Source: a virus (lineage: Duplodnaviria > Caudoviricetes). Taken from it: a stretch of DNA of 64,000 nucleotides. Of the stretch, positions 7,107 to 49,804 are shown piece by piece. The DNA lies in IMG/VR virus record IMGVR_UViG_3300036833_000307, positions 1 through 64,000 of that record. One strand, given 5' to 3'. The notes beneath the pieces are model-generated. The model saw only the letters and a list, made by a program, of their open reading frames with translations, ran no database searches and had not been told where the DNA came from. The position numbers were made by a program, and so were the translations under genes. Every line of letters begins with the position of its first letter. The first letter of the stretch is position 1.

Positions 7107-8426
7107 ATGGCTGTTTCAGTGCCGACCATGGACGAGTTCAATGCGCTCGAGGCACGGGTTGCGGCACTCGAAGGTGCGCCGCCGGAGCTGCCCTCGGATA
7201 TCCCGCCCATTCAGGCCAAGCGCATTGCCGACCTGATCGAGCTGTTCGGCGTCAACACGTTCAGCCAGATCGACGACACCAACGTCTGGGGCAGCTATCC
7301 TTCGGACTATCGTTCGCAGACTGTCCTGGCAGCGCTCAAATACATGACCGGCACGACGAAGTTCTGCTTCGGCATCCGCGAGTATCACTACGCCGGGCGC
7401 GAGGTGATCCAGAAACCCTGGCTCGATGATATCAGGACTATCTACCCTAACAGCACAGTCACGATGTGTGTCAGCGCCAACGGCCAGGTCAGCGACGTGG
7501 CCTCAATGCTGCGAGTGGGTGGCGTCACTTACTTCGAGGGCATCAACGAACCGAACACCGATTTCGGCCAGGGTACCGTGCCGTTCGAGCAGACCAAGGC
7601 GATCCAGGACGAAGTCTGGATGCGCACCGAGACCATCGGCCAACAGCAAAACGTGGCCGGTCCGGCGATCGCTGCCGGCATGCCGAACCCGGAACAATGG
7701 ATCAAGGACTACTGCGGTAGCGGACTTGCTGCCCTGAACGCTGAGCTGCGGCACGGCAACGGCCATTATTACCCGCCGAGCTGCCCGGACCTCGCGCAAT
7801 CCGGCACTTCGCTCGCGGAGTATGCCGGCGGGCTACAGAACGCCTACGGGCAGCCGACGATGATCACCGAGTTCCATCCCTCGTTGCGCAGCACCGATGG
7901 CAACAAGCCGGGCGAAACCGGCTGGAGCGGCGATCGCGACGCCTATTACCTGCTGCTCAGCCTCTACCGCGCCGGCAAGCTCGGCATGCCGCTCTGGTGG
8001 TACGCCCTGTTCGATTATGCGGATGTCCATATCTGCGGGCTGTTCCCGCGCAACCAGCAGAACCCGCGCCCCGCGGCCACCGCGATGCGTAATCTCAGCA
8101 TCACCTGCGCCGATCCCGGTGACGACCTGCGAAGCTTCGCGCCAGGCACTCTGCAATGCCGCGCAACCGGCGAGGCCGGCGGGTGGGACTGGGATCTCTA
8201 CCAATCGAGCGACGGCAAGTTCTTCATCCCGCTCTGGCTGGCAGCGAAGGATCTCGGCGGCCCCTCCACCATGATCACCCTCGAACTGGCGAAGGTTCCT
8301 GCCGCGATCGCCCAATTCGATATCCGCACCGGCGCGCAGCTGCAGTTTCCCGAACCGCCGATGCAGGCGAAAACCTTCCATATCGAGCTCGATGCCAGCG
8401 CCCGGATGATCGTGATCCGGCCATGA
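7107..8426 (+). CDS. Glycoside hydrolase-like (clan GH-A type) protein
   Basis: FEGINEPN and MITEF candidate catalytic motifs; opposite strand to the head operon. Confidence 0.55.
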   Translation: MAVSVPTMDEFNALEARVAALEGAPPELPSDIPPIQAKRIADLIELFGVNTFSQIDDTNVWGSYPSDYRSQTVLAALKYMTGTTKFCFGIREYHYAGREVIQKPWLDDIRTIYPNSTVTMCVSANGQVSDVASMLRVGGVTYFEGINEPNTDFGQGTVPFEQTKAIQDEVWMRTETIGQQQNVAGPAIAAGMPNPEQWIKDYCGSGLAALNAELRHGNGHYYPPSCPDLAQSGTSLAEYAGGLQNAYGQPTMITEFHPSLRSTDGNKPGETGWSGDRDAYYLLLSLYRAGKLGMPLWWYALFDYADVHICGLFPRNQQNPRPAATAMRNLSITCADPGDDLRSFAPGTLQCRATGEAGGWDWDLYQSSDGKFFIPLWLAAKDLGGPSTMITLELAKVPAAIAQFDIRTGAQLQFPEPPMQAKTFHIELDASARMIVIRP

Positions 8427-9736: not shown

Positions 9737-10261
9737 TTACATGGCCAACACGTCACCGTAGACGAACACATTGCAGGTCGCGGGCGCGCCATTCGCCGAC
9801 GTCAGTGACAGATAGAGCGGGCCCTGAAAGCATTTCGTGGCGCAGAGCGGCGCCAGTGTCGCCACCACCATCTCGCTGAGATCCGTGCCGGCCAGCGCGA
9901 AGCTCTGGCCAGCGGCCACTACCGCATCACCGCCTTTTTCCATATCGGTGTAGATCCCGCCCGCGGCAGCGGTGACTGGAGCCGAGGCTCCGGTGACAAC
10001 GACCTTGCTGAGGGAATATCCAGTCACCGGCCCGAGCGAGGAGCTGAACTTCTGATCCTCGGTCGAATTCATATCCGCATCCACCAGCACGAAGAGCGGG
10101 TAGCGGCCGGGGACCACCAGCGCACAGCCCATGGCCTCGAGATCAGTGACCTCAGTGCCTTGTGGCACATCGCGCAGCACGCCGGCACTGTCGGCTATGT
10201 AGGTGGTGCCGAGCCGCGTCAGGAACGAAGCATTCGCGGTCGGAGCGAGTAGCGTTGCCAT
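9737..10261 (-). CDS. Putative virion structural protein
   Basis: Ala/Thr/Gly-rich 174-aa ORF with AGGAG RBS in the head module. Confidence 0.55.
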   Translation of the reverse strand: MATLLAPTANASFLTRLGTTYIADSAGVLRDVPQGTEVTDLEAMGCALVVPGRYPLFVLVDADMNSTEDQKFSSSLGPVTGYSLSKVVVTGASAPVTAAAGGIYTDMEKGGDAVVAAGQSFALAGTDLSEMVVATLAPLCATKCFQGPLYLSLTSANGAPATCNVFVYGDVLAM

Positions 10262-19566: not shown

Positions 19567-21050
19567 GGCGGCATGCCAACGCTGGCTCGCGAGGCGAGCG
19601 CCGCCTCGCGCATGAAGTCGATGATGCCGGTCGTGCTGTCCATCAGCAACATGTAGCCCAGCGCCACGGCATCGACCTGGTCATCGTGGCTGCCGGCGGG
19701 AAACGAGGTGAGTTCGTCGAGAAATGCCTCGGTCCAGTTAGCCCGGTAGAGTTTGACGTTGCCGATGCGGCATTGCGCGGCAAACGGATCGGCCCGATCG
19801 ATCTTGGTGTCGGACTGCGGAAACGCCGTCACCGGATAGCCGGGAATGACCTGGGTCACGTATTGCTGGGCCTGGAACTTGCCGGCCTGCGCCGGGTCCT
19901 GCGGGATCGCGATCTTGGTCATCGGCCCATCCTGTTGAGCCACCGCCTTGACCCGCTGCTGTACGCCGCCCGGGTCTTCGCGGAAACGGACCACCGAGGC
20001 GACATAGAGGATCCCGGTGGCGTTGTGGCGGCCGATCTTCACGCCGACCGACCAGTCTGGGTCAGCCTTGATCGATTTCGCGGTGCCTGCAAAATCCCAG
20101 CCGCGCGCCCAGGTGATGCCGTCGATCGGCATCTCGTCGACCACCTCGAACCACTCGCGCTTGAACAGGCCGCCCTCGCGTGAAGTCGGACGCTGCTGCT
20201 GCTGGCCGGCGACCGCGTAATCACGCAGCGTTTCCCACAGTCCTTCGAGGACCTCGTCACTGAACTTCTCCGGCCACAGCGGCTCGCCTGGGGTACGCCG
20301 CCAGTCATAGGCGTGCCGCTCCGGGTGATCCGGCTCGAACCGCGCCGGCAGGATGACATGTTGGTAGCCGCGGCGGATGCATTCGCCCTGCACATCGCCT
20401 TGGTTAACCCGTTGACCGATAACAACGGATACGCCCTGGTCTGGATTGTTGAAGCGCGAACTCATGCTTTCGAACCAGAACGAGATCGCCCGCACGCGAT
20501 CAGCGTCGCTTTCGGCATTCACCACATCGTGCGGGTCGTCAAACGTTGCGAAATCTGCCCCGTGACCGGTGATGCCGGTGTGGGGAGAACCGACATAACG
20601 CTGCCCGCCAGCGGTGGTCATGTAGAACATTTTTTGGTGCTGATCGCGCTCCAGCCTTACTTCAGGCCAACGTTCGCGATACCACGGATGTTCGACTAGA
20701 CGTCGCGTGGCAAGGCTGTCGCGCGTCGCTAGGCGCTGATCGTAGCTGCAAGAAATAATCTTACAAGACGGCCACCAAGTCCACAGCCAAGCCGGAAACG
20801 CCACAGAGCACAGCAGTGATTTAGAATAGCGCGGCGGGATGCAGATCAGTAATTTGAGGATTTCGCGCCGGGCGGCGCGCTGCAGATGATGTGTGATGAT
20901 CCGGATGTGCTTACCCGGCACGAATGGTGCTGGATCGATATAAGGCCATGCCATGATATAGAAGTCATGAAAGCTGCGCCGGCCTAACTCGCGTTCGGCC
21001 TCGATCCGCTTGGCCAGAAACTCGCTGGTGACGTTCGGATCAAACGGCAT
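19563..21050 (-). CDS. terL: Terminase large subunit
   Basis: IPPRYSKS Walker A, ATFDDPH Walker B, QQQQRP, WDFA, FPAGSHDDQVDA nuclease motif. Confidence 0.95.
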   Translation of the reverse strand: MPFDPNVTSEFLAKRIEAERELGRRSFHDFYIMAWPYIDPAPFVPGKHIRIITHHLQRAARREILKLLICIPPRYSKSLLCSVAFPAWLWTWWPSCKIISCSYDQRLATRDSLATRRLVEHPWYRERWPEVRLERDQHQKMFYMTTAGGQRYVGSPHTGITGHGADFATFDDPHDVVNAESDADRVRAISFWFESMSSRFNNPDQGVSVVIGQRVNQGDVQGECIRRGYQHVILPARFEPDHPERHAYDWRRTPGEPLWPEKFSDEVLEGLWETLRDYAVAGQQQQRPTSREGGLFKREWFEVVDEMPIDGITWARGWDFAGTAKSIKADPDWSVGVKIGRHNATGILYVASVVRFREDPGGVQQRVKAVAQQDGPMTKIAIPQDPAQAGKFQAQQYVTQVIPGYPVTAFPQSDTKIDRADPFAAQCRIGNVKLYRANWTEAFLDELTSFPAGSHDDQVDAVALGYMLLMDSTTGIIDFMREAALASRASVGMPP

Positions 21051-22401: not shown

Positions 22402-23126
22402 TAGCTGCGCCTCCGCAGCCGCCGCACTGCGCCAAGGCCGATTAGCCCAACGCCCATAATAGCGAGCGAGGTCGGCTCCGGCACCGCGGTAACGCTGGAA
22501 ACGATGGTCTGCCCGCGGCTCAACAGCGTGCCGCCAGCGTTCAAGCTGAACACGGCGTTTTCAGTCAAGCTGAACGGCGAGCTGGCCGCAAACGCTACCG
22601 GCACATTGCCGGTCGAGAAGCTGTCAGTGGCGCCGATGGCGGTATGCGAGAAGGTATCGAGCAGCGTGCCCGGAGTGACCCCTGGAGCAGTGGCGCCCTG
22701 CCCGTTGGCCGTGTCGCCAAACCACGTCAGGGTAGCGGTCGAGCCATTGCTGTTCTGGTAGGTGCCCGAGCCAGACAATGTTGCCGTCGTAACCGGTGCG
22801 GTAAAGCCTATATCGCTCACCGTGACAGTGCCGCTGATCGCGCCGGCATTGTTGTTGATCACCGACAGGCTGCTGGTGTTGAGGATGTTGGCGGCTCCGC
22901 CAGCAACGCCGAGCTGGCTGGTCTGGATGCTGCCGTTAACCGTCACCCCGCCGAGCGTGAGGTTGTTGAGTTGCAGCGTGCCGGTGGCCGGGTTGGTATC
23001 GCAAACTGCGTTGTCGGAGCAAGTGAAGATCACGCCATTTATATCGGCGGCGATCATCAGCGTGGCGCTGGCCGGAACGGCATAAGTCAGCCCGAGCAGC
23101 GCCGTTGTGGTGAGCAGTCGCTTCAT
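22401..23126 (-). CDS. PEP-CTERM sorting-domain protein
   Basis: MKRLLTTTALLGL signal peptide plus VPEPTSLAIMGVGLIGLGAVRRLRRRS. Confidence 0.9.
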   Translation of the reverse strand: MKRLLTTTALLGLTYAVPASATLMIAADINGVIFTCSDNAVCDTNPATGTLQLNNLTLGGVTVNGSIQTSQLGVAGGAANILNTSSLSVINNNAGAISGTVTVSDIGFTAPVTTATLSGSGTYQNSNGSTATLTWFGDTANGQGATAPGVTPGTLLDTFSHTAIGATDSFSTGNVPVAFAASSPFSLTENAVFSLNAGGTLLSRGQTIVSSVTAVPEPTSLAIMGVGLIGLGAVRRLRRRS

Positions 23127-24559: not shown

Positions 24560-24907
24560 TCACCGATTGGTTGGCACACCAGGCCCGACGAGTGCCGCCG
24601 CCTTCTCGAACTCCTGTTGCGCAGCTTGCTGCAAATCGCCGATTATCCGGGTCAGCCGTTCGAACCCCCGCATGAGGTCTTCGAACTGCTGTTCGGTGAG
24701 CATCGGCTGGGCATCGACATTGAGCAGCTGCACCGCGACTGGCACGATCTGAGAATAATTGATTAATGTCCGGATACAACTCCGCAGGTTACTATCCAAC
24801 TCAGCTGCCTTGGGATAACCGCTGGCTTTGCGCTGCGCAATGACCGCATCAGCTGCAGGCAACGGAGCAGCAGCCGGCAGGATAGCCGGCAGGACGGGAA
24901 GCGCCAT
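24560..24907 (-). CDS. Hypothetical protein
   Basis: 115-aa ORF with plausible RBS. Confidence 0.55.
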   Translation of the reverse strand: MALPVLPAILPAAAPLPAADAVIAQRKASGYPKAAELDSNLRSCIRTLINYSQIVPVAVQLLNVDAQPMLTEQQFEDLMRGFERLTRIIGDLQQAAQQEFEKAAALVGPGVPTNR

Positions 24908-25907: not shown

Positions 25908-26762
25908 ATGCTGCTCACACGCCCATCGACCAAGACCCGCGGTAACGGTGCGCCTATGCCTCCCGCGCTGCCGAAGCGCCGCGGCCGGCCACCCAAGGTT
26001 GCCATGGCATTGGAAGTACCTGCCGCACCGGTCAAGCGCCGCGGCCGGCCGCCCAAGATAATCCGCGGATTGGAAAAAATGCGGCCGGTGAAAGCGAAAA
26101 TTCCGCCGCTCTCGGAGGGTGAGATCACTGCGCTATTGAGCGGCAAGCCACCACAGAAAATCGCTATCACCGCACCCAACCTTACCACCGCCACGATCAC
26201 CGTCGTCGGGGTAACCCCGTACGTCCAGAACGCCTTTACCGAAAAGCAACGGCTGATAATGGAAGAAACCCAACGCCAAGGTCAGCAGGCGCGTGGCAAA
26301 AAGGTGCGCAAGCCAAAGGATTTCGACGCCATCTACCGCAATGCCCAGCATCGCTCCAAGGAAGACTGGATTGGCATTCCGGCCGCCGCCTTTCGCAACG
26401 CCATGATCGACGCCACTCGTCTCGTCGGTGTCACCATGCAGCATGCCAAGATGAGCATTTTTATCGAAGCCGACGGCTACGACGCCCAAGACATGCGGGG
26501 ACTGGTCAAGATCCAGGGCGAGCCGCGACCATACAAGGCCCCGGTGCGCAATTCGAGCGGTGTCGCGGACATCAGATGGCGTCCGATGTGGGAAAAGTGG
26601 AAGGCCACCGTTCGTGTGACCTGGGATGCCGATCAGTACAGCGCAACCGACATCATGAACTTGATGTTGCGAGCAGGTCTCCAGGTCGGCATCGGTGAAG
26701 GCAGACCCAACAGTCCCAAATCCAACGGCCAGGACTGGGGCCGCTTTCGGATTGCCCCCTGA
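25908..26762 (+). CDS. RAMP/Cas7-like RNA-binding protein (VIPR-type effector candidate) with N-terminal AT-hook-like repeats
   Basis: TITVVGVTPY first strand, GIPAAAFRNAMIDA, IRWRP, C-terminal Gly-rich loop AGLQVGIGEGRP...DWGRF; two KRRGRPPK repeats; sits upstream of the GGC-NN array. Confidence 0.75.
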   Translation: MLLTRPSTKTRGNGAPMPPALPKRRGRPPKVAMALEVPAAPVKRRGRPPKIIRGLEKMRPVKAKIPPLSEGEITALLSGKPPQKIAITAPNLTTATITVVGVTPYVQNAFTEKQRLIMEETQRQGQQARGKKVRKPKDFDAIYRNAQHRSKEDWIGIPAAAFRNAMIDATRLVGVTMQHAKMSIFIEADGYDAQDMRGLVKIQGEPRPYKAPVRNSSGVADIRWRPMWEKWKATVRVTWDADQYSATDIMNLMLRAGLQVGIGEGRPNSPKSNGQDWGRFRIAP

Positions 26763-27283
26763 TGGCGGCGACACGCCGCCAGATCCGGGCCGAATTGCTA
26801 GCGCTCAAAAGCGACGACGGCCTCATCTACCCGGAGCGGGTACATGGATGGGCTCAGCGCCACCCGAATTCCGCGCTGTACAATTCGCTGAACTGGGACG
26901 ATGCCACAGCCGCGCACGAGCACCGGCTTTGGCAAATCCGACAGTTGATCCAGGTGCACATCACGATCGTCAGCGGCACCCGTGAATTCGTTTCGTTGAC
27001 CATCGACCGGGCAAGCGGCGGTGGTTATCGCGAGGTCGCCGATGTCGTCGCCTCCGGCAACCTACGGCAGATCATGTTGGACGATGCGCTCGAAGATTTG
27101 GAACGGGTGCGTCGCAAATACCAACTCCTCGACGAATTGGCGGGGGTCTGGAAGGCGGCAGAAGCCGCTCGTCCGACACCGCGCAGGAAACGGGCACAAC
27201 CCGCCCGCAAGAAGTCGTCACCCCGCCGACGGCGCCCGCTACCGGGCGGCGGTGATGATGGCCAGCCATCTGCGCCGGCATGA
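26762..27283 (+). CDS. Partner protein translationally coupled to the RAMP-like gene
   Basis: TGATG stop/start overlap; HPNSALYNSLNWDDATAAHEHRLWQIRQLI. Confidence 0.8.
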   Translation: MAATRRQIRAELLALKSDDGLIYPERVHGWAQRHPNSALYNSLNWDDATAAHEHRLWQIRQLIQVHITIVSGTREFVSLTIDRASGGGYREVADVVASGNLRQIMLDDALEDLERVRRKYQLLDELAGVWKAAEAARPTPRRKRAQPARKKSSPRRRRPLPGGGDDGQPSAPA

Positions 27284-27301: not shown

Positions 27302-28543
27302 GGCAGGCTCGGCAAGGCGCGTCTCGACGTGGCAGCGCATGGCATGTCTCGGCCGGACAGGGCAGGCACGGCAGGTCCTGGCGCGACGCGGTCGGGCAGG
27401 ACATGGCATGGCCGGGCAGGCCAGGCGGGGCGGGGCTCGACGCGGCTAGGCACCGCAACGCTCGGCAAGGCGGGTCCCGGCAGGCATGGCGTGGCGTGTC
27501 CAGGCCCGCCCGGGCATGTCCCGGCAGGCCGGGCACGGCGAGGCCTGTCACGACGAGCCACGGCTCGGCATGGCAGGCGCGGATGGCGCGGATGGCAAGC
27601 CAAGACGGGGCCGGGCAGGCGTGGCACGGCACGGTCAGTCCGGGCTACGCGCGTCCAGGCTTGGCAGGCGTGGCATGACTGGGCTTGGCGTGGCAGGGCG
27701 GAGCCCGCCCCGGCAGGCATGGCATGACTGGGCTTGGCGCGTCTCGTCTGGGCTTGGCGCGGCAGGCATGGCTCGGCCCGTCTTGGCCCGGCACGGCGGG
27801 GCAGCGCAGGCGTGGCAGGTCCCGACGAGGCATGGCCGGGCCTGCCGCGGCTCGGCGGGGCATGGCGGGGCAGGCGCGTCATGGCATGGCCCGTCCCGGC
27901 CTGCCGAGGCGTGGCCCGCCACGGCATGGCAGGCGTGGCAAGCCTCGGCGAGGCAAGGCGTGGCAAGGCCCGGCAGGGCAGGCGCGGCAAGGCGGGGCGG
28001 GGCCGGTCCTGGCTCGACATGCCCCGGCTCGGCAGGCACTGGCTCGGCAATGGCTCACCGGCCGAGCATGGCAGGCGTGGCTTGGCCTGGCGGGGCGTGG
28101 CCTGTCACGGCCCGGCCCGTCTCGGCAGGCTTGGCGCGACAGGCCCAGGCATGGCTCAGCTCGGCTCGGCGGGGCAGGCGTAGCAAGTCTCGGCTGGGCA
28201 AGACGTGGCAAGGCGAGACGAGCCTGGGCAGGCACGGCACGGCGAGCCTTGGCTTGGCTAGGCGTGGCCCGCCAGGGCATGGCAGGCATGGCGAGGCTAG
28301 CCTCGGCAAGGCGCGGCCCGGCGCGGCGTGGCAGGCCAGACGCGGCAAGGCGGGGCTCGGAGCGGCGCGGCGTGGCCAAGCGCGGCAGGCGCGGCAGGCT
28401 CGGCAACGGTTCACCGGCCGAGCCCACCCCGCGGCAGGCATGGCACGGCCTGGCCCGGCCCGACGAGGCACGGCGTGGCGAGACTAGGCAGGCGCGGCCA
28501 GGCATGGCTTGGCAAGGCTGGGCGCGGCAGGCAAGGAGTGGCA
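27302..28543 (+). repeat. Non-coding array of GGC-NN pentamers in about 23-25 units delimited by GGCA (putative guide-RNA array)
   Basis: Strict 5-nt period (GGC, sometimes GTC/GAC/GCC/AGC/CGC, plus 2 variable nt), mostly 7-12 pentamers per unit, phase reset by GGCA; all overlapping ORFs are low-complexity artefacts. Confidence 0.9.
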
Positions 28544-29649: not shown

Positions 29650-30730
29650 GTTCAATCACCTCCGCCTCCGGCCCCAGGAGGTCGTCGATCGGATCGGGCA
29701 CCGGCGGCAACGGAATCGCCCGATGATCACGCTGGTGGCGCTCCAGCAACTCCATGCCCCGGCGAACCGCCCGCAAGTCCTCGGTCGAGAGACCATCCAC
29801 ATCGATCAATTGCGGACCATCGGCGTTCTCATCACCAGGGTCCCCGGGTTGCAGCCCGGACGGCACATTGCCAACGATGACCTTATTCAGCCCGGCCACC
29901 GACCGCTTCAGCTCGATCGAGCGGAACAACGCGTCCGACAACGTCCGCAAGCCGGCAGTGAAACTGTCCTTCTCGGTAGGAGCAATCATCCGAAGCGCAG
30001 TCCGCTGCGCCTTCGCCAGCGCCGCGTCAGCTTTTCGCTTGGTCATATTTGCCGTATCGACGTACTGGTGCGGCGCCAGATAGACCTCGAGCCAGTACCA
30101 GTATTTGCCGAGCAGGGTATCAAACCGCTCGAGCTGACGGATCTGCTCGACCGACATCGCCGCCCGGATCGCCGCCAGTGTAATACGCAACTGGGTCTTC
30201 TGCGGATCCTCACCAGGTCCGAGCACCTGGACCGCGGCGACTGATGGTTGCGGCGGCGGCGGCGCTTCGTCCCACTTTTCCTGCTTGCGCGCGTAATACA
30301 AAGCTTTCGTGTCGACATGGAGCACCCGCGCCAACTCCATCATGTTGGTCTTACCCGGCTGGTAGAGCTTGCGGGCGGCGGCAATTGCCTTGGCGGTATG
30401 GCTCTCTGCCGCCCGCCGCGGGCGCCCCCTAGTAGGCCGCCCTTTGTCACGTTTATCCGTTGTCGACGGCGCCGGCCGATGCGGTGGCACCTTGTCGGGT
30501 GCTGGATGCGGCAGTTCCTGGGTCATGATCGCAGCCTCCACCTCCTCAGCAATATTGCGAACGCCCTGATTGAACCGCATCCATCCCTCACGCTCGGCCA
30601 GCGAGTGCAGCGTGCCGTGATTAGTGCCAAACCGCTTGGCGAGCGTCGCGAAGCTGATGTTCTCGGTTTCGTACAGTACCCGGCATCGATCGCGGACCTG
30701 AAGTGGTAGAGCGTAGAATTCCAGCGGCAT
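29633..30730 (-). CDS. HTH protein, terminase small subunit candidate
   Basis: Two HTH-like repeats ending EREGW / KQEKW and C-terminal IDVDGLSTEDL; same strand as and upstream of TerL. Confidence 0.55.
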   Translation of the reverse strand: MPLEFYALPLQVRDRCRVLYETENISFATLAKRFGTNHGTLHSLAEREGWMRFNQGVRNIAEEVEAAIMTQELPHPAPDKVPPHRPAPSTTDKRDKGRPTRGRPRRAAESHTAKAIAAARKLYQPGKTNMMELARVLHVDTKALYYARKQEKWDEAPPPPQPSVAAVQVLGPGEDPQKTQLRITLAAIRAAMSVEQIRQLERFDTLLGKYWYWLEVYLAPHQYVDTANMTKRKADAALAKAQRTALRMIAPTEKDSFTAGLRTLSDALFRSIELKRSVAGLNKVIVGNVPSGLQPGDPGDENADGPQLIDVDGLSTEDLRAVRRGMELLERHQRDHRAIPLPPVPDPIDDLLGPEAEVIEPTIPR

Positions 30731-34826: not shown

Positions 34827-35055
34827 TTGCGGCCGGTGAACCGTCGCCGCAAAGCCAGCCAAGCCTGCCGCGCCCAACCCGGCCCTGCCTGGCCGCGCCA
34901 TGTCCTGCCTGGCCTGCCGCCCCTGGCCCGGCCTAGCCCTGCCTGGCTGCGTCTCGCCATGCCGTGCCAAGTCCAGCCCTGCCTCGCCCGACCAAGCCAC
35001 GCCTGCCATGACCCGCCGTGCCTAGCCTGCCAGGGCCTGCCGCGCCTTGTCCCAG
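34827..35055 (-). ncRNA. Stand-alone GGC-NN mini-array (solo guide locus 2, about 3 units)
   Basis: Pentamer period on the minus strand; TTGACG(35081-86)-N18-TACGAT(35057-62) promoter; ends in a hairpin with the GACGGTTCACCG loop. Confidence 0.85.
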
Positions 35056-45651: not shown

Positions 45652-46697
45652 ATGGCCTCATTGTTCCAGGTTCATAAGAACTCTGGCGACATTGTCGCGG
45701 TCAGCGCCCGCACCATGCTGGGCATGCTGGCCGATCCCTATTCGGCCGCGCGCCTGATGCGCGAGCTGGCGTTCGATCGCGAGGTCGAGGTCGAGCTGCG
45801 CGACGGGCCGGCCAAGGTCAAATACGCTGACCCATTACCCAAACGGCAGCGCGAGCTGCCGATCATCCCCTACGATGCTCAGGTGAACCTCGTCTTCGTG
45901 CTGCCGGCGCTGGTGAAGTGCCGCGCCAGTTCGGAGATGGAGGCCAAGCACACCATCGAGGAAATCCTGCTGCGCGCCGGCCGCTGGCCGAGCGACGGCT
46001 TCGATCTCATTCTCCGGCCCGAGGACCTGAAGGCGTTCATTGAAAGTCTGGAGATCAAAAGCACTCTGGCGATCCAGGACGTCGAATTCCTCAACGTCTA
46101 TCCATGCAAGCAGCTGACCCACGAGCGGAGGACCTGACCATGCTGATGTCGGTATTCCGCCAGGGCCAGCCCACGCTGCAGATCGACCACCTGGTCGCCA
46201 TACGCGAGGCGGTCGATCCGGATCACGCCGGCATGGTGTTGCACGCCTGGACGCAGAACGCGACCGTATTGATCGGTCTGCGTTCCGGCGAGGCGATCAT
46301 CAAGCCTGCCGCCGACGGCGATGAGCAGCTCAGCTTCGAGGCGCTCTATGACACCTGCATTTCGCTTTCGCAGTGGAAGCAGATGAAGGCTCAGCGCGTC
46401 GTCAAACCTGAGGACCTCGCACCGCATCTCTACGAGCTCGATGTTCTGCTCGAACAGGCTCGTCCGGTGCGTGTGCGGCTGCGCATTAAAGCCAAAACAA
46501 CCACCGAAGTAAGTCAGCTTCTCAATCGCTTGGTCCGTGAAGACAAAGAATTTCAGGATAGCTTGATGGCGAAGCTTACCGAGGCGTTGTTGATACAGGA
46601 CGACGGCTCGATCATTTCTACTTCAGTACACAAGGTTGAGCACGTTGCGCCTGGAGATGCGCCGCTCTGGTCGTTCGTCCCAGAGGAACCTGGCTGA
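45652..46697 (+). CDS. Two hypothetical genes (45652-46137, 46140-46697)
   Basis: AAGGA / GGAGG RBS; downstream of promoter at 45493-45521. Confidence 0.65.
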
Positions 46698-46752
46698 TGG
46701 CTCGGAAACCGCGCTTGCATTTCCAGTCCATGCCGCTAGACTGCATTTTGTC

Positions 46753-46850
46753 GGCTCGACGCGGCATGGCGCGACTTGGCCAGTCCCGGCTCGGCTTGGC
46801 AGGCACGGAGAAGCAGGACCCAGAAGCACCATGCCGCTTCCGGGTCCTGC
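46753..46850 (+). ncRNA. Stand-alone GGC-NN mini-array (solo guide 4)
   Basis: 9 pentamers + ggca ggcac + hairpin; TTGCAT(46715-20)-N16-TAGACT(46737-42) promoter. Confidence 0.85.
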
Positions 46851-46938
46851 GCTCGGTTTTCCGCACAGTGTCTTTCGCACGCCATCCTGGTGTGCGGCAG
46901 AGAGCCCGCTGTTCAACGGGTAGAAAGACACCAAAAAT

Positions 46939-47760
46939 ATGTCTGATATCGTAAGGATGTTATCGAACCCGCTGGCAAAATCCGCATCCCAAACCGATTT
47001 CTTTCTCCTTACATTGGCGGAATGTGCAAAATTCGGCGTGCCGCCGCAGGCGCTTGCGCTGCTGCGCGATGTGCATAGCATGTTGGGATATTCCAAACCG
47101 CTCGGCGAAAAACAGATCAGCGCCCTGGCTGGGCCGTTGGTGGCGTGGCGCACCGATCCCCGGCAGCCGCATTTCGAGCGCGTTGTCGATCTCGAACGGC
47201 TGGCCTTTCACCAGCGCGCGCTGATCGCCTTTGGCGGCGGCAAACCTGGCGAAATGGTGGGCCGTGCCGAGATCGTATACGCGATGGGAAATCTGCTGCA
47301 CGGGACCTCGCCGCCGGAATACTACGAAGTATTCCAGTGGGCCTCCGTCGATACGCTCGCGGAGATCGAGGGAGACAGCAAGGCGAAAATCCTGGCCGAC
47401 CGTGAAAAGGACGGCTGGACAGCCGTCGCCGATGCGGAAGTAACCCAGCCCGGTGGGCGGCTCTACGCCACCTACCAGGAAATCTGCACGTCGATCCGCC
47501 GCGAGGCAATCGCCGGACTGGAGCGGAACCCGGCGGGGCATCCACGCAACATACTGCGGCCAATGGCCGCTCTGGCCATCGCCAACCATGCCCGGATCAA
47601 ACAGGAACTCCTCGCCGAGGGGCGTCCCGAAGTGGTGGAGACACTCGACCGCACGATCGAACAGATCCGCGGCATGTTTCCTGGTCTTGGCTCGTTGGAC
47701 GATGAGCTCAAGCGGCGCAACCAGGCCGCTCTCAACGAGGTCCTGGAAGAACTCCTGTGA
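46939..47760 (+). CDS. Hypothetical protein (273 aa)
   Basis: Preceded by the repeated leader; contains a near-match to solo guide 4. Confidence 0.75.
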   Translation: MSDIVRMLSNPLAKSASQTDFFLLTLAECAKFGVPPQALALLRDVHSMLGYSKPLGEKQISALAGPLVAWRTDPRQPHFERVVDLERLAFHQRALIAFGGGKPGEMVGRAEIVYAMGNLLHGTSPPEYYEVFQWASVDTLAEIEGDSKAKILADREKDGWTAVADAEVTQPGGRLYATYQEICTSIRREAIAGLERNPAGHPRNILRPMAALAIANHARIKQELLAEGRPEVVETLDRTIEQIRGMFPGLGSLDDELKRRNQAALNEVLEELL

Positions 47761-47869
47761 GCCTCGCGGATCCCGGTGCGCAAGCACCGGGTTCCGGTCC
47801 GCCATCCCTATCGCCGCACTCATTGTGCGGCGGCAGAGAGCCGGCTGATACCGGCGCAAGGGAGGCCTT

Positions 47870-49804
47870 ATGGCTAAACCAACGAAGTATCCACGCAGAC
47901 TGCGGCGAACCCTCGAGAAGGTCGCCGACGGCCGGCGGGAGCGGGAAGCCAAAGCGGCGGCGGAGGACGATGTTCCACCGCTGTTCCGATCGTTCTACCA
48001 GTCAGGATTTCTGACCCAGGTGCAGACGATCCATACCCGTTTCAACGACGCGGCAACGCAAGCGACAACCATCTATCAGTTGCATCCGTTGCCGGCGAAC
48101 CGGCGTATTTTCGTGCCGCCGCCGTGGATCCTAAAACCCAAAAGCGACGCGTCCTGAGAGGGGCGCGCTGCTTATCCCGCAGCTTCCTGCGGGGCAGTCG
48201 AGCCGACGCTGCTCAGTCGGCGAAAGGAAACCCCATGCGGAAAATCATGCGAATGATGCGCGACGCCTGGCGGGCTGGGCGGTTGCCCGAGCCATTCAAC
48301 GTACGCGCCTTTCGTACGGCCTGCCCAGGTCTCGCCGCCACGACCTACCCGACGTTCCTGGCGAAGCACGCTAAGGACAATCCGGGTGGTAACTCGACAC
48401 GGTTCAAGCGTGTTTCACGTGGCTGGTACCGTTTCTACGATCATGAATGATCGGGACCGCGCGCAGTGGGTCGACAACGACGAGGGCCTGTATCGCTGGT
48501 GGCGCCAACACCGCCAGAGCAAAGCCGCCTTCATTCGCGCTAACCGCGCCGAGATCGACGAGATCATCGGCAAGATCCAACGCGGCGAACATAAGCCGCA
48601 TTACCTAGCCTACCCGCCTACGCGCAAAGCGTAGGCGCCTTTCGCACGCAGCATGCGTTGCGGCAGAGAGCCGGTCTGCCAACCGGCGCAAGGAAACCCC
48701 ATATAATGGCCAGTCCATTCGACTATGACCTCGACCTCAACCTCGACGCAATGGCCGAGGAAGACCTCGAGGCCTGCGCGAACCATCTGACAACGATGGT
48801 CGATTATTGCTCGCACAAGCTCCTGGCAATGCGGCAACGCAAGATCGGTCGCATCCAGGATGCGCTCGACAACGAGCGCGCATGCGAGCTGATCTACCAG
48901 CGCATCCCCGCCAACTGGCGGTGGTGATCCGCGCAAAACCAACGCCTGCGCAACGCAGGCGTCTCTCGCTTGATTTCAAGCGGCAGAGAACCGGTCTGAT
49001 CACCGGCGAAAGAATAATGATGAGCAACGAACGCAGCGCCGAGGCGGAGGTCCGCAATCCGCTCCTCAGCCTGCCGGCGATGCAGAAAATTCGGGCACTT
49101 CCGGCGCCGGCGCGCCAGGCGCTCGCGGAACTCCTGGTGGAGCTCCACAGCGATGCCGAGCGTCGGGCGCAGGTCGCCTGGAACCGCAGCAAAGCACCGA
49201 TGGCGGCGTACTGGAAATCGGTCGCCGTCTATACGCTGCACATCCACCGGGCGCTGCGAAAATAGCGCCCGGCTTTCGTGCAACAGCCTGTTGCACGGCA
49301 GAGAGCCGGTCTGCTCACCGGCGAAAGACCCCATTCCATGACCAAACCCGACAAGTCGGCCACAGCGCGCGCGCTGGAGCGGTTTTTGCGGCATATGCTG
49401 GCCGGCAAACGGCCCGCCACGCTCAACGCCTGGCACAAGCTGGGTAATGAGTTGCAACTGGAGCCACTGCCACCAGCCGAGGAAGTCCTCGAGGTGCTGT
49501 CAGGCTTTTCACTGTCGCGCACCATGGCCGAAAAAACCGACTAATGCCGAACCTCGCGCTCTGCGGAGCCGAGGCTCCGGGCAATTCCGCCCGGGCAGAA
49601 GAGGCACGACAGATGAAGATCACCACCGATCTTTACACCGGGAAGCCGTTCCGCTGGAACACCACGGTTTTGCATCGGGCACCCGACGGCAAACTTACCA
49701 CCGTGCCCGCCCGCAGCACATCGCGTAGTAGTACCTGGCTGCATCCTTCACGGGTGCCGGCGGCACTGCTAGCCGAATTGAACCCGGACAAGACCAAACC
49801 CTGA
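47870..49804 (+). CDS. Cluster of small genes (47870-48157, 48235-48450, 48443-48634, 48706-48927, 49017-49265, 49338-49544, 49613-49804)
   Basis: Nearly all preceded by a repeated structured leader. Confidence 0.65.

Follow-up and report, generated by a model that had tools for sequence, protein, structure and literature searches.

The window, a 64,000-nt stretch of the 102.6-kb genome of a Caudoviricetes phage (G000; IMG/VR record IMGVR_UViG_3300036833_000307), contains a vipr gene, a vap-like accessory gene, a staggered array of vrRNA units and stand-alone ('solo') vrRNA units, one of which, solo vrRNA 4, lies directly upstream of a conserved phage gene (Table 1). VIPR has been described as the combination of a RAMP protein, Vipr, with vrRNAs built from GGY/NN pentamers, which address their targets by a one-base skip rule (bioRxiv 10.64898/2026.04.26.720920, 10.64898/2026.04.26.720927). 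Vipr is a minimal RAMP with an RRM core, a G-loop and a thumb, and a vrRNA comprises 9–16 tandem pentamers, hypervariable in NN, and a conserved, structured 3' tail. As published, Vipr protomers assemble into a polymer along the vrRNA, with each GGY hidden and the NN pairs exposed. These pair with positions 1 and 2 of successive target triplets in double-stranded DNA, thereby blocking transcription. Natural VIPR targets are mostly coding and occur on either strand, with the skipped base at the wobble position. The VIPRs characterised so far silence transcription without cutting, and some types carry nuclease or helicase vap genes (all bioRxiv 10.64898/2026.04.26.720920).

Table 1. Features of the VIPR system, the solo vrRNA 4 cassette and the linked gene (positions are those of the window or, beyond it, of the genome).
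Feature	Position	Strand	Remarks
vipr, RAMP-fold effector with N-terminal extension carrying RGRP repeats	25908..26762	+	Profile match to SUSP1 Vipr; phrog_4652
vap-like accessory gene, 173 aa	26762..27283	+	Overlaps the vipr stop by ATGA; phrog_15946; virus-only hypothetical family
Staggered vrRNA array, ~22 units of 7–12 pentamers	27306..28530	+	Units joined via GGCA/GGC with a 1-nt overlap
Solo vrRNA units in the window	21112, 34870-35037, 37991, 51095/51124, 54087, 62242		Same 5-nt periodicity
Solo vrRNA units beyond the window	70162, 91312		Same 5-nt periodicity
Promoter-like pair TTGCAT, 16-nt spacer, TAGACT (putative)	46715..46742	+	Ends ~10 nt 5' of the pentamers; TAGACT box and spacing conserved in the G001 cassette
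Guide part of solo vrRNA 4, nine G-N-C/NN pentamers	46753..46797	+	Same format as the array units at 27306-28530 and published vrRNAs
3' handle and tail: GGCA, GGCAC GG, GC-rich hairpin, T run	46798..46862	+	Stem arms 46814-46821 and 46842-46849
Three-way-junction-like leader: CTTTC, hairpin, GGCAGAGAG, hairpin, GAAAG	46863..46938	+	Before the ATG; part of the downstream gene, not of the guide
Linked gene, conserved all-alpha phage protein, 273 aa	46939..47760	+	50 homologue clusters; AF2 model pLDDT 90.9
Near-cognate, putatively escaped target site KDGWTAVAD	47407..47433	+	16/18 to guide 4; in frame with ORF 46939-47760, 468 nt from the ATG

Profile and model comparisons assign the locus, with its vipr, vap, staggered array and solos, to the VIPR systems. 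A profile of the effector, built from 25 homologues, gave a single PDB match, the SUSP1 Vipr protein (36pp_D, E = 1.8e-4), aligned over the G-loop region. The AF2 model of the effector (pLDDT 75, core >85) matched the Cas7/Csm3 backbone subunits with a probability of 1.0. NCBIfam returned no family for vipr or vap. The guide RNAs have the published vrRNA format, with nine pentamers in solo 4, 7–12 in the array units and NN dinucleotides that differ throughout; the second base of the repeat is degenerate, being G more often than A, T or C. At least ten solo vrRNA genes are dispersed through the genome.

Residues 1–90 of Vipr (25908-26180) form a low-confidence extension of ~90 aa that contains two KRRGRPPK repeats of the AT-hook-like RGRP type. 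Most Vipr homologues (~235 aa) are without this extension, which may provide an extra DNA contact. The second base of 'GGY' is often A, T or C (GAC, GTC, GCC; occasionally CGC/AGC), as at 46758, 46773 and 46783. Repeat recognition by this Vipr clade is probably looser than, or different from, that in SUSP1, where changes to GGY abolished activity. All solos of this phage and of the related viral contig G001 end in GGCA-GGC-NN-GG followed by a strong hairpin, the sequence of which varies. The hairpins that close the arrays and some of the solos have the loop motif ACGGTTCACCGG, found in the window at 28040-28070, 28395-28425 and 34835-34865 and in G001 at 20545-20580, 22641-22680, 24753-24790 and 30010-30050. 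This loop may be a conserved tail element of this VIPR clade.

Two other accounts of the pentamers were set aside. A protein-coding function was rejected: none of the ORFs extends across the whole array, and base composition alone accounts for all three forward frames being open there. We also dropped the idea of a TRAP-like ring-binding site with uninformative spacers, since the NN dinucleotides are conserved while GNC varies, and in view of the VIPR papers.

The free dinucleotides of solo vrRNA 4 read TC GC AT GC TT CA CC TC TT and are followed by GGCA and then GGC. Its handle and tail fold with −36.5 kcal/mol, and the hairpin stem is common to the homologous cassette of G001 and retained in L024, a relative without the guide. 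A consensus promoter and terminator scan gave no site in 46600-47000, the promoter-like pair upstream of the pentamers being too weak for that scan, so both the promoter and the terminator of solo 4 are assigned by conservation only. Scans for Rfam families, tRNAs and tandem repeats returned nothing relevant. The leader with GGCAGAGAG recurs (46863-46935, 47790-47870) and also stands ahead of many small genes, directly before their start codons. It is present in the guide-less relatives L023, L024, L104 and L106 and is therefore independent of the vrRNA cassette.

To decode the guides, we reverse-complemented the dinucleotides and laid them on the first and second base of each triplet, covering both strands of the whole genome (102,563 bp). 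Guide 4 decodes to KDGWKAIAD, and 16 of its 18 bases agree with the site in the linked gene. The mismatches fall on position 2 of codon 5 (guide AA, gene ACA) and position 1 of codon 7 (guide AT, gene GTC), of which the latter would amount to an rU-dG wobble. A first-pass annotation of this DNA had described the near-match as lying in codon phase, with one mismatch possibly a G-U pair, and re-decoding bore out both points. The site is the sole one reaching at least 15/18 on either strand of the genome, with a runner-up of 14. When the order of the dinucleotides was shuffled, 12 of 2000 trials (0.6%) reached a score of at least 16 at any place in the genome. Exact enumeration of all 45,360 distinct orders gave such a score within ±1 kb for eight (1.8e-4), corresponding to ~0.006 after correction for the ~34 units available. 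The near-match thus survives the objection, raised together with it, that shuffled guides might find similar sites within 1 kb; it is real and not due to chance.

The spacing of the match is that of the published rule. With no skipped base the guide reaches at most 14, with two at most 13, and with three it finds its own DNA alone, whereas the 1-nt skip gives 16/18 in frame and with wobble alignment. Five further guides have significant matches that are in frame or antisense and wobble-aligned. The first-pass annotation took the near-match as independent support for a gapped code. That code is real, but since it had already been published as the VIPR 1-nt skip rule (bioRxiv 10.64898/2026.04.26.720920), the match backs a known rule and establishes no new one.

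No Pfam, PHROG or NCBIfam family was found for the linked gene, and a fold search of its AF2 model gave no PDB match. Across its homologues, the family consensus is K at codon 5 of the site (33/49) and I at codon 7 (46/49), while the resident protein has T and V. Relatives carry AAA and ATC at these codons, from which a single base change leads to the resident ACA and GTC, respectively. Guide 4 and the resident differ solely at the two codons where the resident lacks the consensus K and I, and they agree at the lineage-specific residues D2, A6 and A8, each present in 2–3 of the 49 homologues. Because it shares these rare residues and has the consensus K and I, guide 4 appears to be directed at a sibling allele very close to the resident one.

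A perfect gapped match, sought in homologues of the linked gene as the first-pass annotation had proposed, did not turn up. The best non-self matches were 16/18 in L023 and 15/18 in both G001 and L024, no better than self. Exact searches for the perfect target of guide 4 gave 0 matches in IMG/VR and 79 in JGI metagenomes, none of them in a homologue of the linked gene; the 79 lie in unrelated genes, mostly on low-GC contigs. Searching the locus against a phage database with blastn gave no match, and a scan of metagenome contigs for homologues found nothing. Homologue scans of viral and genome contigs recovered G001, L106 and L104 only, the last two without a solo.

Further comparative evidence comes from outside the window, from G001 and L024, and concerns a different guide than solo 4. 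The protein of the linked gene in G001 is 64% identical to the resident one, and a homologous cassette lies at the same place (G001 10034-10078), with the same −10 box, handle and hairpin stem as the cassette at 46753-46797. All nine dinucleotides differ from those of solo 4, and the two guides address two different sites in the same gene. The G001 guide has its sole 9/9 amino-acid-compatible site genome-wide in this downstream gene, ~330 nt off (0/3000 shuffles). At the base level it matches its own site at 14/18, the mismatches affecting three codons, for Arg, Leu and Ser, each written in the alternative codon family.

L024 and G001 share 97–100% identity across most of ~2.5 kb and 96.8% in the linked gene (26 of 822 nt differ), and L024 is without the promoter-pentamer segment present in G001. 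The L024 site matches the G001 guide at 17/18 (0/20000 shuffles), compared with 14/18 in G001 itself. The 25-nt footprint of the guide contains nine of the 26 differences found across the gene (0/20000 random placements). From L024 to G001, the footprint changes include CGC to AGA, CTG to TTA and GCG to AGC; AGA accounts for 1.6% of the Arg codons and TTA for 1.3% of the Leu codons in G001. The lower score in the carrier and the clustering of rare-codon changes lead us to conclude that the guide-carrying G001 has been recoded away from its guide. Between the two contigs, the flank of the cassette is divergent (89%, then unalignable) and the recoded patch is separate from it, with ~190 nt of near-identical sequence in between.

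Three of the nine clustered substitutions (alignment columns ~1019-1050) affect the skip base only, change G/C to T/A and are not forced by the genetic code. One of these three changes affects the codon that adjoins the nine read by the guide. Vipr may be somewhat sensitive to the skipped base after all, or else the patch was acquired by recombination.

A solo at the end of the L024 contig (L024 4503-4542) matches G001 7580-7603 at 16/16, at the syntenic locus (0/5000 shuffles). The matched stretch is the RBS and start-codon region of a gene beginning MPKEFA. Given this match, the near-identical (~97–99%) L024 and G001 carry guides against each other.

The same pattern extends to other units of G000. 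Four of them (46753, 70162, 91312 and 27306) find their best amino-acid-level match in the whole genome in the ORF next to them, in frame and on the same strand (local p <1/400). For solos of G000, the guide-less orthologues in G001 score higher than the genes next to the solos themselves, with 22/26 versus 19/26, 17/20 versus 15/20, 17/18 versus 15/18 and 20/26 versus 17/26. The self copies beside these solos differ by Leu/Ser family swaps or by single amino-acid changes. The first-pass suggestion that solos adjoin the gene whose rival allele they target therefore held up: guide-less near-identical relatives match better, and the resident alleles are changed at guide-read positions.

Comparison of the array units with G000–G004 gave no significant targets, except for unit 27306 against the vap of G002. 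This unit, the first of the array (27306-27360), near-matches the phage's own vap (27062-27094) at 17/22, with 9/11 codons compatible and two Leu family swaps; the vap homologue of the related contig G002 (~32908) is matched better, at 19/22. The array unit at 27419-27478 (L001 6639-6693) recurs in G001 with a single altered dinucleotide, TT to CT, which decodes as Leu to Leu, and with differences at several of the constant GNC bases. The decoded unit reads as a DPPW-type adenine-methyltransferase-like motif, and an exact search for this target gave 0 matches in IMG/VR.

We favour, with a probability of about 0.68 and on the sequence evidence above, the reading that solo 4 and the linked gene form a linked guide and resistant allele that would silence sibling alleles. 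The segment at 46715-46862 would be a stand-alone vrRNA gene of the phage's own VIPR, probably transcribed from its own weak promoter, and the RNA would be loaded with Vipr from 25908-26762. By analogy with the published system, the filament would bind the double-stranded DNA of a sibling allele of ORF 46939-47760, encoding KDGWKAIAD, and block its transcription. The resident allele would be spared by two single-base, amino-acid-changing departures at guide-read positions (AAA to ACA and ATC to GTC), which presumably abolish binding. The 'poison' guide and the 'antidote' allele would be kept within ~600 bp of each other, a distance at which recombination would rarely separate them, and they would stay linked because a recombinant with the guide and a sensitive allele would silence itself. 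In a co-infected cell, or in a host that already carries a close relative as a prophage, the relative's unaltered allele of this conserved early gene would be silenced, probably to the relative's detriment.

The solo might instead be meant to bind the resident gene in cis, the imperfect match tuning or delaying VIPR repression as a timing switch and rivals being hit incidentally. The VIPR preprints call targets at ≥80% NN identity and found no self-contig match of this kind in the types examined there, whereas one exists here, at 16/18 (89%). Guide and target are on the same strand and transcribed in the same direction, and the site is intragenic, where binding could block elongation. One of the mismatches could be a G-U pair, and the resident gene may for that reason still be bound by guide 4. 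The G001/L024 pattern is the opposite of what selection for pairing would leave, since the carrier's own site has been degraded to 14/18 through rare codons and that of the guide-less sibling is kept at 17/18. Several solos match the orthologues of another phage better than self, and the resident mismatches are derived states. Autoregulation is accordingly an unlikely explanation. Chance resemblance, or a composition shared between a GC-rich repeat and a GC-rich gene, draws what strength it has from the many guides and decodings that could be tried, with ~34 units available. The exact enumeration speaks against it (1.8e-4 locally, ~0.006 after the 34-unit correction), as do the independent replicates in G001, in L024 and in four other G000 units under one pre-published rule, and we consider it extremely improbable.

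A homing or gene-drive element, in which Vipr-vrRNA would recruit a nuclease to cut the rival allele and repair would copy in the resistant patch and the guide gene, fits the presence or absence of the cassette between near-identical genomes, the divergent flank and the separate, converted-looking patch at the target, as well as the existence of VIPR types with nuclease or helicase vap genes. However, Pfam, PHROGs and NCBIfam gave no nuclease family for vipr, vap or ORF 46939-47760, fold searches of vipr and of the ORF gave none either, and the neighbours of vipr and vap likewise have no recognised nuclease domain; a distant or trans-encoded nuclease could still act. Characterised VIPRs silence without cutting, and the ~190 nt of near-identity between cassette and recoded patch speaks against a continuous co-conversion tract. 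We regard homing as quite improbable. The first-pass annotation had offered a homing or an allele-exclusion cassette side by side; the comparison backs allele exclusion, whereas homing gained no direct support.

The favoured reading, a linked guide and resistant allele, has parallels among selfish elements. In intronless homing by free-standing phage endonucleases, such as the T-even Seg/Mob enzymes, the selfish element adjoins a conserved gene and attacks the rival allele; the carrier allele is protected by polymorphism, and presence or absence varies between close relatives. Unlike Seg/Mob homing, the agent here would be a trans-acting RNA-guided filament, with no nuclease or cleavage evident, and its effect is probably silencing rather than conversion. 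In poison-antidote linkage, as in toxin-antitoxin and restriction-modification systems, attack is tightly linked to self-resistance, which avoids attack-only recombinants. In contrast to those systems, the 'antidote' here would consist of a few base changes in the target gene and not of a gene product.

With the VIPRs of Escherichia phage SUSP1 and a P. fulva prophage, the system shares a small RAMP protein followed by an accessory gene, pentamer arrays that are staggered with a 1-nt overlap, and NN pairs that read positions 1 and 2 and skip the third base of wobble-aligned coding targets. Like the published systems, it is phage-encoded and would be directed at other phages. The present system differs from both in the RGRP-repeat N-terminal extension of its Vipr and in the at least ten solos spread across a VIPR-positive genome. 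Solo or orphan vrRNAs have been reported in F5 satellites and in VIPR-null SUSP1-like phages (bioRxiv 10.64898/2026.10.15.759431); these are likewise stand-alone vrRNA genes outside the vipr locus, with Vipr provided in trans or from elsewhere. Their effect is to steer Vipr towards REP decoys of the host or to hit the vipr/vrRNA loci of rivals, and for vrRNA-targeting vrRNAs the self scores are lower than the non-self scores, which was read as autoimmunity avoidance (bioRxiv 10.64898/2026.10.15.759431). Each solo described here, unlike them, lies within ~100–600 bp of its target, a protein gene that the phage itself carries in altered form. It has also been argued that escape from VIPR needs an amino-acid change (bioRxiv 10.64898/2026.10.15.759431), whereas escape here also proceeds by synonymous Arg, Leu and Ser codon-family switches.

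The VIPR system and its code, solo vrRNAs, and self scores below non-self scores for vrRNA-targeting guides are already known from the 2026 preprints. Three features are absent from the VIPR preprints and appear to be new: the tight linkage between every solo and a minimally changed copy of its protein-gene target in the same phage, the coupling of cassette presence or absence to a recoded patch between near-identical phages, and escape by six-fold-codon family switching. Codon-family escape is a loophole in a wobble-skipping logic that published work presents as closed, and natural target escape that includes synonymous six-fold-codon switches to very rare codons qualifies the claim that wobble-skipping forces an amino-acid change. 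With the two natural pairs, G001/L024 and G000/G001, mismatch tolerance, self/non-self discrimination and guide reprogramming can be tested directly.

What VIPR does in nature is so far understood for one E. coli phage with its satellite (2026 preprints). A VIPR-positive phage with many solos, each linked to its own protected target copy, points to a different deployment, in sibling-phage warfare at the level of single alleles. We give about even odds to the broader proposition that dispersed solos and their neighbouring, minimally recoded targets are heritable guide-plus-resistant-allele modules for kin discrimination or allele exclusion, turned over by NN reprogramming at a fixed cassette and escaped also via the Arg, Leu and Ser codon families. 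If a recombination step also spreads the modules, they would be RNA-guided gene-drive elements of phages.
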